Counted from the stretch's first letter, positions 19,064-24,113 are shown. The stretch is DNA of 64,000 nucleotides from an uncultured Spirochaetaceae bacterium (GCA_964515335.1 CAZETS010000013.1:11728-75727), one strand, 5' to 3'. Notes: generated from the letters alone by a model not told the origin. Numbers and translations are program-made.

Positions 19064-19158
19064 CGGGGGGCTCCTCGTCTCGTGTGTGTCTTCGCGCCCG
19101 CAGACAGGTGGTACCCCTCCCGATGCGGTTGGGCACACCCATTGCCATGGGCCGTCCA

Positions 19159-19200
19159 CTGCATGCTCGCACATGCAGGTGAGAGGTCTCGACTGCATGG
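19159..19200. promoter_or_regulatory. Candidate enhancer (UAS): palindrome CTGCATG-N6-CATGCAG plus a third CTGCATG copy
   Basis: Read directly. CTGCATGCTCGCACATGCAG lies at 19159..19178 and ACTGCATG at 19192..19199. It is centred about 70-90 bp upstream of the sigma-54 -24 box. Confidence 0.3.
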
Positions 19201-19247
19201 CTTCCGCTGCACTTCTGGCGCGAGGGCCCACCAGCGGCCCCTCGCCT

Positions 19248-19263
19248 GGGCACGCCGATTGCT
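19248..19263 (+). promoter_or_regulatory. Sigma-54 (RpoN) promoter, GGGCACGCCGATTGCT
   Basis: Matches the consensus TGGCACG-N4-TTGCW at 15 of 16 positions with exact GG-N10-GC spacing. It faces the kinase-kinase-activator-pspA genes. Confidence 0.55.
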
Positions 19264-19542
19264 CTGTGGGATGGGCGAGGTCTGCGGCACGCGAGCGGGT
19301 CGCGAAGACGTGGTCCGCGAGAGAGCGGGCCAGCGCCGGAGAGAGGTCGAGAGATGGGGACACGCGCGGGCCGAGCCAGACGCCACCAGAGCCGGCCCCG
19401 GGTTTCGGCGGGATTCGGAATCGCGCCGGACGAGGCGGCGCCGCTTCCCTCGGGGGTGATGGCCCGTGCCGTGGGACGTCCCGGCTTGCGGCTCCATACT
19501 CGCTGCGAGCGGCCTCCCGGCTGCCCAGACGAAGGAAGCGAC

Positions 19543-20664: not shown

Positions 20665-20732
20665 GGGTGTCCACCCACGAAGCCTGCCCGGCGTCGGGTA
20701 CCCTTTTGCGGCACCAGCTGGAGGAACTCCCG

Positions 20733-21881
20733 ATGGCGCGCTCACGCGACGAGCGAACCGGCGCCCCCGGCGGCGCGCGCAGCCGGCGCCGCGGCCGTCT
20801 GCAGCGTCACGGCCGCCGCCCCCGCGGATCGCAGAAGCCCCCGGACGAATCGCACGACGCGAGCCTGCTCGGCGAGCTCGACGAGTCGCTGATGGATCCC
20901 GAAGAGCGCGCCTGGGCCGAGGCGCATCGCGCCGCGGACGAGAAGGTGAAGCTCTGGGGCAAGGTCGCCCGGCTGGCCATCGTCGCCGTGCCGTTCATGA
21001 TCTTCATTCCCTGGGTCGGCTTCGTGATCTTCTTCTTCGGCGGCATGAACCTCGCCCGCCGGGCCTACCGGATCTACTACGAGCCGAGGCTGCGCGAGCG
21101 CTTCATCGACGAGGAGGTCTCGAAGCGCATCGACCGCAGCGTGCGGGCCGAGCGGCAGAGCCTCGAGGGCGAGCACGCCCAGACCCTCGAGCGGCTCTCG
21201 GCCTCGATCGCCCACGAGATCCGCAATCCGATCACCGCCGCCAAGAGCCTCGTGCAGCAGATGGGCGAGGACCCGGTCAACTCCGAGAACGTCGAGTACG
21301 CGAGCGTGGCGCTCGGCGAGCTCGAGCGGGTCGAGCGGTCGATCTCGCACCTGCTCCGCTACGCGCGCGAGGAGGAGATGCGCCTCGACGTCGTCCGCCT
21401 GGCGGACGTGCTCGATTCGGCGATCGAGACCTTCCGCGACCGGGCAAGGCGCGAGAACGTGAAGATCGTGAAGAGCTACGACTGCGAGGGCGCGATGCAG
21501 GGCGACGCCGAAATGCTGCGCCGCGTGGCCATCAACCTCGTCGGCAACGCGATGGACGCGCTCGGCGACGGCGCCACCCCGGATCCGCGCATCGACGTGG
21601 CGCTCGGCGAGAACCTCGCCGGCACCGAGGTGTGGGTGCGGGTGTGCGACAACGGCGCGGGCGTCGGCCCCGATGCGCGCGACCGCATCTTCGATCCCTT
21701 CTACACGTCGAAGGAGCACGGCACGGGGCTCGGGCTGCCGATCACCCGCAAGCTCGTCGAGTCGCACGGCGGCGAGATCGAGCTGACCGAGTCGCGGGGC
21801 AGCGGGGCCGAGTTCGTGCTGACCTTCCCGAAGGCGGGCCGCCGCCGTGAGGGCACGGGGCAGGAGGGAGAAGCCCGGTGA
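20733..21881 (+). CDS. Sensor histidine kinase 2, a paralog of kinase 1 with the same architecture
   Basis: ATG at 20733 follows GGAGGA. The TM hairpin is LAIVAVPFMIFIPWVGFVIFFFGG. The H-box peptide is identical to kinase 1. NLVGNAMDA, DNGAGV and GTGLGL are present. Confidence 0.85.
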   Translation: MARSRDERTGAPGGARSRRRGRLQRHGRRPRGSQKPPDESHDASLLGELDESLMDPEERAWAEAHRAADEKVKLWGKVARLAIVAVPFMIFIPWVGFVIFFFGGMNLARRAYRIYYEPRLRERFIDEEVSKRIDRSVRAERQSLEGEHAQTLERLSASIAHEIRNPITAAKSLVQQMGEDPVNSENVEYASVALGELERVERSISHLLRYAREEEMRLDVVRLADVLDSAIETFRDRARRENVKIVKSYDCEGAMQGDAEMLRRVAINLVGNAMDALGDGATPDPRIDVALGENLAGTEVWVRVCDNGAGVGPDARDRIFDPFYTSKEHGTGLGLPITRKLVESHGGEIELTESRGSGAEFVLTFPKAGRRREGTGQEGEAR

Positions 21882-23290
21882 GTGCTTCGCGCATCCTGGT
21901 GGTCGAGGACGAGCAGGCGATCCGGCTGGCCTTGAAGGGCCTGCTCGGACGCGAGGGCTACGAGGTCGAGCTGGCCGACACGGGCGAGCGGGCCATCGAG
22001 CTGCTGCAGGGCGAGGTCTTCGACCTGGTGCTGACCGATCTCGCTCTCGGCCGCGGTGCGAGCGGCATGGACGTCTTGAAGACCGCCAAGGAGCTGCGGC
22101 CCGAGACGGCGGTGGTGATGATCACCGCCCACGGCTCGGAGAAGATCGCCGTCGAGGCGATGAAGAGCGGCGCCGAGGACTACGTCCCCAAGCCCTTCGA
22201 CAACGACGAGCTGCGCGTGGTGGTGCGCCGCGCCCTGGACCGGCACCGCCTCGAGCGCGAGAACCGGTTGCTGCTCGAACGCATCCAGCGCGACGCCGGG
22301 TTCCAGAGCCTGATCGGCTCGGGGGCCGGCATGCGGCGGGTCTTCGAGACCATCCAGAAGGTGGCCGAGACCGATCTCAGCGTGATGATCCGCGGCGAGA
22401 GCGGCACCGGCAAGGAGCTGGTCGCCCAGGCGATCCACGACACCAGCACGCGCAAGCACAAGCCCTTCGTGGCGGTCAACTGCGCGGCCATCAACCGCGA
22501 GCTGGTCGAGAGCGAGCTGTTCGGCCACGAGAAGGGTGCGTTCACCGGCGCGGACAGCCGGCGGATCGGCCGCTTCGAGGCCGCCGACGGCGGCACCATC
22601 TTTCTCGACGAAATCGGCGACATGGCGCCCGAGACCCAGGCCAAGGTGCTGCGCGTCCTCGAGGAGAGGAAGCTCGAGCGGGTCGGCAGCACGCGTCCGA
22701 TCGACGTCGACGTGCGCGTCATCTCCGCCACGCACCGCGACCTCGAGGAAGAGGTCGCGAAGGATGCCTTCCGCGAGGACCTCTACTACCGCCTCAAGGT
22801 CGTCGCCGTCGAGCTGCCCCCTCTGCGCGAGCGCAGCGAGGACATCCCCGCCCTCACCGATCGCTTCCTCGGGCAGCTCGCCGAGCGCCTCGACCGGCCC
22901 CACAAGCGCCTCGCCGCGGGTGCGCTCTCGCGCCTGGCCCGCCACGGCTGGCCCGGCAACGTGCGCGAGCTGCGCAACGTGCTCGAGCAGGCGGCGGTGC
23001 TGGCTTCCGGCGAGGAGATCGAAGAGGGCGACCTGCGGCTCGGCGACGCGCCGGGCAGCGCTCCCGCCGCCGCTCCCGTCGTCGACGAGGGCGTGCCCTT
23101 CGCCGAGGCCAAGCGCCGCGTCGTCGAGCACTTCGAGCGCGAGTTCCTGCTGCGCGCCCTGCGCGAGCACGACGGCAACGTGTCGCGCACCGCCCAGGCG
23201 ATCGGGATGGTGCGCCAGAGCCTGCAGCAGAAGATTCGCGAGCTCGACCTCCGCTCGGAGGACTGGAGCCGCGAGTCCGGCACCGACTGA
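21878..23290 (+). CDS. Sigma-54-dependent response regulator (REC, AAA+ and Fis-type HTH domains; NtrC family)
   Basis: GTG at 21878 overlaps the kinase 2 TGA. It has a receiver domain (ILVVEDE..DLVLTD), Walker A GESGTGKE, the GAFTGA loop (EKGAFTGA) and a C-terminal HTH (GNVSRTAQAIGM). Confidence 0.9.
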   Translation: MSASRILVVEDEQAIRLALKGLLGREGYEVELADTGERAIELLQGEVFDLVLTDLALGRGASGMDVLKTAKELRPETAVVMITAHGSEKIAVEAMKSGAEDYVPKPFDNDELRVVVRRALDRHRLERENRLLLERIQRDAGFQSLIGSGAGMRRVFETIQKVAETDLSVMIRGESGTGKELVAQAIHDTSTRKHKPFVAVNCAAINRELVESELFGHEKGAFTGADSRRIGRFEAADGGTIFLDEIGDMAPETQAKVLRVLEERKLERVGSTRPIDVDVRVISATHRDLEEEVAKDAFREDLYYRLKVVAVELPPLRERSEDIPALTDRFLGQLAERLDRPHKRLAAGALSRLARHGWPGNVRELRNVLEQAAVLASGEEIEEGDLRLGDAPGSAPAAAPVVDEGVPFAEAKRRVVEHFEREFLLRALREHDGNVSRTAQAIGMVRQSLQQKIRELDLRSEDWSRESGTD

Positions 23291-23342
23291 CGCGCCCACC
23301 ACGAGACGAACCGAGTCAGGTCACAACCACAGGAGACGAACC

Positions 23343-24113
23343 ATGAGCTACAGCAAGCGACCGGGCATGTGGGCCAGGCTGCGAAGCCTGGTCGGAGGCC
23401 TCTTCGGCAGCTGGGTGCGCGAGCGCGAGCAGCAGAGCCCGGAGGTCGTCTACGAGCAGGCGATCGGCGAGCGGGTGCGCCAGTACCGCGAACTCAAGGA
23501 GGCCGTGGCCGGCATCCTCTACATGCGCAACAAGCTCGAGCAGGAGATCAACGAGCGGCGCGTCGAGATCGCGCGCATGCACGACGACGTGCGGCGGGCG
23601 GTGCGGGCGGGTCGCGACGAGATCTCGCTCACGCTGATCGGCCAGAAGCAGGCGCTGTTCGAGGATCTCGAGCGCGCCGAGCAGGAGCTGTCCACGGTGC
23701 GCACCCAGGCCGACGAGGCCAAGGCCAACCTCGTTCGCTTCCGCGAGGAGATCCGCTCGCTGGTGCGCGAGAAGGGCCACATGCTCGCGACCCTGGCGAA
23801 CGCCCAGGCCCGCCGGCGCCTGCAGGTTGCGATCGAGGGGCTCTCGGTGGACGCCGAGATGGACGCGCTCGAAAGCGTGCGCGACCACATCTCGCGGATC
23901 GCCATGGAGGGCGACCTGAGCAGGGAGATCGGCGACGACGGCCTGGTGATGCGCGAGCGGCTGCGCGAGTTCCGCGACGAGGCGCGGCGCGAGTCGGCGC
24001 GCAGCGAGCTCGATCAGCTCAAGCGCGAGCTCTCGAGCCACACGCTGGCGGGCGAGGCGGTGACGCACGTCGAGCACGGGCGCGAGCCGGCCGCGGCCGC
24101 TGCGGCGGGCTGA
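23343..24113 (+). CDS. pspA: PspA/IM30-family (phage shock protein A-like) protein
   Basis: ATG at 23343 follows AGGAGA. It is 256 aa and coiled-coil rich, with the family N-terminus (WARLRSLVGGLFGSWV...PEVVYEQAI..) and an ATLANAQARRRL pattern. Confidence 0.8.
   Translation: MSYSKRPGMWARLRSLVGGLFGSWVREREQQSPEVVYEQAIGERVRQYRELKEAVAGILYMRNKLEQEINERRVEIARMHDDVRRAVRAGRDEISLTLIGQKQALFEDLERAEQELSTVRTQADEAKANLVRFREEIRSLVREKGHMLATLANAQARRRLQVAIEGLSVDAEMDALESVRDHISRIAMEGDLSREIGDDGLVMRERLREFRDEARRESARSELDQLKRELSSHTLAGEAVTHVEHGREPAAAAAAG

Follow-up and report, generated by a model that had tools for sequence, protein, structure and literature searches.

A conserved two-component operon that may place PspA under sigma-54 control in an uncultured bacterium

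Introduction

How is PspA controlled when its gene closes an operon that also encodes histidine kinases and a receiver-bearing sigma-54 activator? The question is raised by a 64,000-nucleotide stretch of DNA from an uncultured Spirochaetaceae bacterium (GCA_964515335.1, CAZETS010000013.1:11728-75727), referred to below as the window, in which four plus-strand genes (19543-24113) encode, in this order, the kinases K1 and K2, a sigma-54 activator and a PspA/IM30 protein. Positions are those of the whole window and strand signs are relative to it. To our knowledge, only for three lineages is it understood how PspA is controlled: by titration of PspF, by LiaFSR and by ClgR.

A preliminary description of this locus, made from the sequence of the window alone, had proposed a sigma-54 promoter with a palindromic enhancer, two paralogous kinases built around a tight membrane hairpin, an NtrC-type activator, a PspA/IM30 protein and a hairpin terminator, in an architecture thought to be uncharacterised. 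We have followed up these proposals by comparing the locus with its relatives in other genomes, by profile searches and by structure prediction. The reading that we favour, with a probability of roughly 0.7, is that the four genes make up a membrane-stress module that is self-contained and positively autoregulated.

Results

The gene order of the operon is conserved among relatives

We collected 80 loci with a gene for a K1 relative, each from a different species-level genome, all of these genomes being metagenome-assembled and belonging to uncultured Myxococcota or "Deltaproteobacteria" (a further 253 weaker genome matches were not fetched). The bacterium of the window is itself treated here as an uncultured marine myxobacterium. 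Gene order was counted in the 66 loci that extend for at least 4.6 kb after the K1 start, and the succession of one or two kinase genes, activator gene and pspA was found in 63 of these (~95%), which strengthens the preliminary description. Two kinase genes are present in 47 of the 63 complete loci and a single one in the other 16; the second kinase is optional. The apparent gap between the activator gene and pspA has a median of ~43 bp. No other neighbouring gene is common to more than 16 loci, and therefore the four-gene (or three-gene) set is the conserved unit. In the window the junctions measure 68 bp between K1 and K2, -4 bp between K2 and the activator gene and 52 bp between the activator gene and pspA, exactly as first reported for these four same-strand genes.

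A sigma-54 promoter precedes the first kinase gene

Upstream of K1, the element GGGCACGCCGATTGCT (19248..19263, +) fits the sigma-54 (-24/-12) consensus TGGCACG-N4-TTGCW at 11 of its 12 specified positions, with correct spacing between GG and GC, and is the sole match to this consensus in the 64 kb at no more than one mismatch. The motif alone proves nothing, since 0.37 matches are expected in a shuffled 64-kb sequence and 33 of 100 shuffles gave at least one, so that a lone motif in the window is not significant; the significance of promoter and enhancer comes from their conservation across loci and not from the single window.

In the relatives, a promoter was called when a GG-N10-GC element agreed with the consensus at 10 or more of the 12 positions and lay no more than 800 bp upstream of K1. 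Such an element precedes the first kinase gene in 74 of the 78 loci with usable upstream sequence (two of the six fetched loci that have no promoter call have almost no upstream sequence), and a locus, of ~17 kb, usually has no other match on the plus strand. Slightly weaker promoters (GGCAT...TTGC) were seen at the same place in L018, L049 and L074, where the enhancer is present too. The family consensus reads yGGCACG-N4-TTGCTCT, and a log-odds profile trained on the promoters of the 74 relatives, with the window left out, gave the element at 19248 a score of 26.5 bits, the second-best site of the window reaching 15.0 bits and all others less than 9. The sigma-54 match that had been noticed at this position, with exact spacing, is thus well supported by comparison as a promoter, from which a transcript would be expected to start near 19274. 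The second-best site, GGGCACACCCATTGCC (19131-19146, +), is a sigma-54-like motif; enhancer site 1 (see below) lies 28 nt downstream of it, and L001, the closest relative, lacks it.

A scan of the window with the same profile found no separate sigma-54 element before pspA, in agreement with the preliminary description, and in the window pspA would most simply be read from the operon promoter. Three relatives with a larger gap between activator gene and pspA (L049, L060 and L074) carry a second strong sigma-54 element just before pspA (at 3516, 10539 and 10472, respectively), and the one in L049 is preceded by a near-canonical enhancer half-palindrome, CGCAG-N8-CTGCA. These extra promoters lend independent support to PspA being under the same control. 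In L060, a third, diverged kinase-like open reading frame lies between the extra promoter and pspA.

Two palindromic sites form a putative enhancer

Upstream of the promoter, copies of the heptamer CTGCATG lie at 19159 (+) and 19193 (+), with the complement at 19172. Together, the first copy and the complement make up the palindrome CTGCATG-N6-CATGCAG (enhancer site 1; 19159..19178, +), which has TGCA cores at 19160 and 19174 and is found 70-89 bp ahead of the promoter. The second copy, 49-55 bp ahead of the promoter, forms the left half of enhancer site 2, CTGCATGGCTTCCGCTGCAC (19193..19212, +; TGCA cores at 19194 and 19208), which starts 34 bp past the start of site 1 and has CTGCAC, at 19207, as its right half. 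The locus had been described as having one palindrome and a stray third half-site, both 70-90 bp upstream of the promoter: the palindrome is real and lies at that distance, but the half-site is closer to the promoter and, once the overlooked fourth core at 19208 is taken into account, the layout becomes one of two TGCA-N10-TGCA sites.

Alignment of the regions upstream of the promoters gave a family enhancer of the form TGCAG-N8-CTGCA, with the core TGCA-N10-TGCA, whose first base mostly lies 91-92 nt before the promoter and which is usually followed by one or two further TGCA cores. The core motif occurs between -140 and -40 in 63 of 74 loci, compared with three matches in the remaining 1.05 Mb, and the strict palindrome, found in 49 of 74 loci, has no match elsewhere. 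Neighbouring cores are spaced by 14 bp (81 cases) or by 19-20 bp (32 cases), so that the 14/20/14 spacing of the window represents a common family pattern; the only two matches to TGCA-N10-TGCA in the 64-kb window, at 19160 and 19194, are those of the enhancer. The inner flanks of site 1 are T..A, as opposed to the usual G..C, and L001 has GTGCATG-N6-CATGCAC at the corresponding site. Two-fold symmetry is kept in both variants, as expected for a dimer-binding site. Given the usual logic of such systems and the palindromic form of the sites, the operon's own activator would be the protein that binds 19159-19212.

A further element, YAASY-N3-YGWW (for example TAAGTCCTTGAAAAT in L034), which is IHF-like when read on the other strand, lies 29-32 nt before the promoter in many relatives. 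It was found at this fixed position in 44 of 74 loci, whereas 0.006 would be expected, and is absent from L001, from L002 and from the corresponding part of the window (19213-19247).

The activator is predicted to be a complete receiver-type enhancer-binding protein

The third gene (21878..23290, +) encodes a protein with the Pfam domains Response_reg (residues 6-116, E = 2.1e-28), Sigma54_activat, AAA_lid_14 and HTH_8, that is, a receiver (REC), an AAA+ domain and a Fis-type helix-turn-helix (HTH). The phosphoacceptor position D54 of the receiver, the Walker A (GESGTGKE) and Walker B (FLDEIG) motifs and GAFTGA are all present, the last being kept in 56 of 63 orthologues. The REC/AAA+ (GAFTGA)/HTH organisation reported earlier is thereby recovered, and by its domains and motifs the protein is predicted to be a complete receiver-type sigma-54 enhancer-binding protein of the NtrC family. 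It reached the cut-off of none of the named NCBIfam activator families (NtrC, AtoC, ZraR, NtrX and PspF), with scores of 445 against a cut-off of 559 for NtrC, 431 against 714 for AtoC, 403 against 760 for ZraR and 276 against 444 for PspF, and the nearest solved structures are those of Aquifex NtrC4 and NtrC1, NtrX and ZraR.

Across its AAA+ and HTH parts, the activator shares 38% identity with Escherichia coli PspF. In PspF, residue W56 docks PspA. This residue aligns to K193 of the activator, and among 63 orthologues 57 have K or R at this position and none has W, so that the classical inhibition of PspF by PspA would not be expected here.

K1 and K2 differ in how they meet the membrane

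K1 (19543..20664, +) consists of a basic N-terminal tail, two predicted transmembrane helices with a loop of 1-4 residues between them, and the HisKA and HATPase_c domains; Pfam recognised a 2TM domain (27.9 bits, cut-off 24.8) next to these two and no other domain. K1 orthologues from 70 loci share two hydrophobic segments of ~23 and ~24 residues, and in 70 of 70 cases the loop between them is R or RSxR. The segments come after a conserved basic helix (EERAYRxARRRAN) and before PxLRxR, a coiled linker and the H-box. With this predicted topology K1 fits the definition of an intramembrane-sensing histidine kinase, since, with a periplasmic loop of 1-4 residues, a signal could come from nowhere but the membrane or the cytoplasm. 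The N-terminal tails of the kinases are long, variable, poorly conserved and of low complexity, and conservation sits in the membrane segments and the helices that flank them. In three K1 homologues (P0003, P0011 and P0036) the tail contains a charged coiled-coil insert of 60-150 residues, which is absent from the K1 of the window.

K2 (20733..21881, +) had been described as a second kinase of the same build, with a basic tail and a two-helix hairpin. This description holds for K1 but not for K2, in which Pfam found HisKA and HATPase_c only and where a single 25-residue hydrophobic segment (L81-M105), with a kink at I92-P93, precedes these domains. The 2TM domain (PF13239), present in nearly all K1 homologues, was called neither in K2 nor in any of its 120 best homologues. 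K2 orthologues show one uncharged stretch only, 25-29 residues long, in which 34 of 36 have a central proline; it is flanked on both sides by net positive sequence (~5.6 K/R each). An AlphaFold (AF2) model built from 36 K2 sequences has a helix at residues 56-91, a break at 92 and a second helix at 93-179, with predicted local distance difference test (pLDDT) values of 84-90 in this region. Because both flanks are basic and each arm measures only 11-13 residues, the segment probably dips into the inner leaflet as a hairpin and does not cross the membrane twice; a single span is disfavoured, as it would leave the arginine-rich N-terminal tail outside and break the positive-inside rule.

The paralogy of the two kinases, also part of the preliminary description, is clear: they share 53% protein identity overall and ~84% in the dimerisation and histidine phosphotransfer (DHp) helices, and their genes are a tandem duplicate with 76-79% DNA identity in a register of 1223 nt (19857-20565 and 21080-21788). 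DHp helices determine the choice of partner, and the high identity in these helices is compatible with one regulator serving both kinases and would permit heterodimers. In a protein encoded on a public contig of 1.6 kb (P0004), a K2-type N-terminus is fused to the exact K1 C-terminus of the window; this chimera probably arose where the assembly was joined across the DHp sequence that the two genes have in common.

The start of K1 at GTG 19543 is preceded by a ribosome-binding site, GAAGGAAG, and the homologue N-terminus MADQRPILEPIF aligns to MSDEHSVLEPII there. A longer K1 beginning at ATG 19354 was ruled out because the N-termini of homologues align to the GTG 19543 start. For K2, one gene caller used the in-frame GTG at 20661-20664, which overlaps the K1 stop codon (GTGA) and gives a protein of 406 residues (P0241); the junction between K1 and K2 would then be -4 bp, as it is between K2 and the activator gene. 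ATG 20733 seems the likelier start: GGAGGA precedes it by 7 nt, and the length of the protein agrees with those of the homologues.

The last gene encodes a PspA/IM30 protein

The 256-residue product of the fourth gene (23343..24113, +), of the ESCRT-III superfamily and the presumed effector of the operon, matched PF04012 (PspA_IM30) with E = 2.6e-19 over residues 9-229, which correspond to positions 2-217 of the 220 in the profile. Its AF2 model (pLDDT 76.5, above 90 at residues 40-140) consists of helices at 9-31, 33-88, 92-188 and 191-232, which correspond to the N-terminal amphipathic helix and long helical hairpin of PspA/IM30 proteins, and when this model was compared with the Protein Data Bank using Foldseek the top 17 matches were all Vipp1 or PspA. 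BLASTP revealed no similarity to E. coli PspA and no NCBIfam model matched. Profile and predicted fold agree with the original PspA/IM30 assignment, and we take the last gene to encode a genuine member of this family. In seven relatives (L017, at 12520-13020 (+), and six others) a gene for a predicted membrane protein of ~166 residues follows directly after pspA, and its product could possibly be a partner of PspA in a subgroup.

Leader, terminator and neighbouring genes

The predicted 5' leader of ~268 nt (19275..19542, +) contains no recognised RNA element: it gave no Rfam match and its fold was not better than those of shuffled sequences. After pspA, a GC-rich hairpin with a stem of 9+4 pairs (24148-24179, +), strong locally, is followed by UCUUCGUU. 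The terminator scan, a consensus search that is uninformative at 71% GC, did not call this hairpin, and the region around it folds no better than shuffles (z = -1.14). What had been presented as the terminator of the operon is thus reduced to a plausible hairpin, and the segment 24148..24187 to a possible, unproven intrinsic terminator.

The operon is flanked upstream by a divergent gene for an acyl-CoA dehydrogenase (17885-19063, -) and downstream by a DUF3127 gene (24256-24612, +; Pfam 4.8e-22). The idea that the enhancer also serves the acyl-CoA dehydrogenase gene was rejected, as no minus-strand sigma-54 match was found in the intergenic region toward it. Similarly, the DUF3127 gene was rejected as a fifth gene of the operon, its position after the operon being kept only in the window's relatives L001 and L003.

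Discussion

The locus resembles three known kinds of system but lacks defining features of each. With the enterobacterial Psp response (PspF and pspABCDE) it shares a PspA/IM30 protein expressed from a predicted sigma-54 promoter, an activator of the NtrC family with an AAA+ domain and a Fis-type HTH, and upstream sites; a sigma-54 promoter together with upstream activator sites that would control pspA, a feature of the classical Psp system, was found here in silico. However, PspF lacks a receiver and is bound by PspA at the W56 loop, while the activator described here has a full receiver and K or R at that position. In addition, two kinases are encoded upstream, the activator gene lies inside the operon and not divergently, and there is no pspB or pspC in the module or as a conserved neighbour (as searched in the module and the collected loci, not in the rest of the genome). 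With LiaFSR-LiaIH of Firmicutes it shares an intramembrane kinase, a two-helix hairpin with a near-absent outside loop, a PspA homologue, a response regulator and, by prediction, autoregulation; but LiaS has HAMP and a HisKA_3 core, whereas these kinases have HisKA (PF00512) and no HAMP call, LiaR is a NarL-type regulator acting at a sigma-A promoter, whereas the regulator here is of the Sigma54_activat type, and the module has no equivalent of LiaF or LiaI.

Systems of the ZraPSR and AtoSC types likewise pair a HisKA kinase with a REC-AAA+-HTH_8 activator at a sigma-54 promoter, and ZraSR, which serves in envelope stress, likewise has an effector of its own. In NCBIfam the kinases came closest to AtoS and ZraS and the activator to NtrC, AtoC and ZraR, all below equivalog cut-offs. 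Unlike K1, with its loop of 1-4 residues, ZraS has a periplasmic sensing domain, and the effector ZraP is periplasmic, in contrast to the cytoplasmic PspA. In actinobacteria, PspC-histidine kinase and ClgR-PspA systems also replace PspF by a dedicated transcription factor or two-component system (Ravi 2024, PMC11237479; Popp 2022, PMC9239133), but they rely on sigma-70-type regulators (wHTH/cHTH) and a PspC sensor, and none has a receiver-type sigma-54 activator. The predicted output logic of the operon is therefore that of enterobacterial Psp, its predicted input logic that of LiaFSR and its protein families those of the AtoSC/ZraSR type.

Variants of PspF and links of two-component systems to PspA have been covered in surveys of Psp (PMC9239133, PMC11237479) and in an evolutionary study (PMC3041696), and the Psp activator of Desulfovibrio is also receiver-less (PMC4641369). 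The combination of kinase, receiver-type sigma-54 activator and PspA in one operon, which the preliminary description had regarded as uncharacterised, was not found described in these Psp and sigma-54 surveys (PMC9239133, PMC11237479, PMC3041696, PMC3162934, PMC4641369) or in text searches.

In silico, the relatives keep the gene order as well as promoter and enhancer, the predicted domain content is complete and the last product has the profile and modelled fold of a true PspA, and these comparisons give good support to a real, conserved regulatory module that is a variant of the Psp response. In the mechanism that we propose, K1, in which a tight transmembrane hairpin and a basic tail are all there is besides the catalytic part, would respond to some physical property of the cytoplasmic membrane, as would, where K2 is present, its proline-kinked segment, probably from within the inner leaflet. 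The kinases would then phosphorylate the receiver of the NtrC-type activator encoded next to them, and the phosphorylated activator would assemble on the two TGCA-N10-TGCA sites, ~50-90 bp upstream of the promoter, and remodel the sigma-54 holoenzyme, yielding one transcript for kinases, activator and PspA. Finally, PspA would bind and stabilise the damaged membrane; feedback of some kind by PspA may also take place. Membrane or envelope stress would be the stimulus.

Several observations weigh against this mechanism. An autoregulated loop needs a basal promoter to prime it and none was found, the sigma-70 scan, which used an E. coli-type consensus that is uninformative at 71% GC, having returned no sites. 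A search for the RpoN-box motif in the window and the fetched loci gave no match, and the presence of sigma-54 in the genome is an assumption, because rpoN lies in neither. The IHF-like element found between enhancer and promoter in many relatives is missing from the window. Transcript data are sparse: one seawater metatranscriptome contained three exact short contigs inside K1 and the activator gene, which carry no start-site information, and four others had no match to the operon. Lastly, pspA does not follow the activator gene in three loci: its usual place is taken by a membrane/dehydrogenase fusion gene in L056 and by a serine recombinase gene in L068 (11323-12243, -, directly after the activator gene) and likewise in L078, which suggests insertion or replacement by a mobile element in these two.

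The same wiring could accommodate a PspA that is mainly a regulatory partner, holding the kinases off through their hairpins or basic tails while the membrane is intact and leaving them for damaged membrane, so that PspA itself would be the real sensor; this would amount to the titration of PspF by PspA shifted one step up, onto the kinase. The near-constant linkage of pspA to the two-component genes, with its small gap, is in keeping with this idea, as are the conserved basic juxtamembrane helices on the cytoplasmic face of the kinases and the lack of the W56 docking residue in the activator, which means that any feedback by PspA must act elsewhere. Nevertheless, a plain effector gene predicts tight linkage equally well, and we regard this explanation as unlikely. 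We are similarly sceptical of another, in which the kinases sense a cue other than damage (lipid composition, fluidity, pressure, temperature or a cytoplasmic ligand at the N-terminal tail) and PspA is the output of routine remodelling and not a stress protein. The organism's origin in marine metagenomes and the long, variable kinase tails, some with a coiled-coil insert, would suit it; but the tails are poorly conserved and of low complexity, conservation being centred on the membrane segments and flanking helices, and proteins of the PspA family are stress effectors in characterised systems (Popp 2022, PMC9239133). Finally, that the motif and palindrome of the window are non-functional and the operon or pspA is read from an unrecognised housekeeping-type promoter is very improbable, for although a lone motif is found in a third of shuffled sequences and a similar string occurs nearby at 19131, promoter and enhancer are position-specific across ~75 species against a background near zero and an enhancer-binding protein is encoded within the operon.

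Our preferred reading, the autoregulated membrane-stress module, can be taken further in a direction that is speculative and, in our view, rather doubtful: the bilayer-spanning hairpin of K1 and the inner-leaflet hairpin of K2 might together form a depth-resolved sensor, in which homo- and heterodimers act on one activator and PspA feeds back on the kinases. If this were true, membrane damage would be sensed by histidine kinases that lack a sensor domain, and not by PspA, PspB and PspC, to which this role is normally assigned.

The module would represent a fourth, evolutionarily stable solution to the control of PspA, in a large uncultured marine clade, which joins the sigma-54 output of proteobacteria to the sensor-less kinase input of firmicutes. 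The motif TGCAG-N8-CTGCA constitutes a predicted DNA-binding specificity for an uncharacterised branch of enhancer-binding proteins. Being limited to four genes, with promoter and 18-bp palindromic operator both defined, the module should transfer readily to a tractable host, where it could be used to address how kinases that have only membrane helices detect damage to the membrane.

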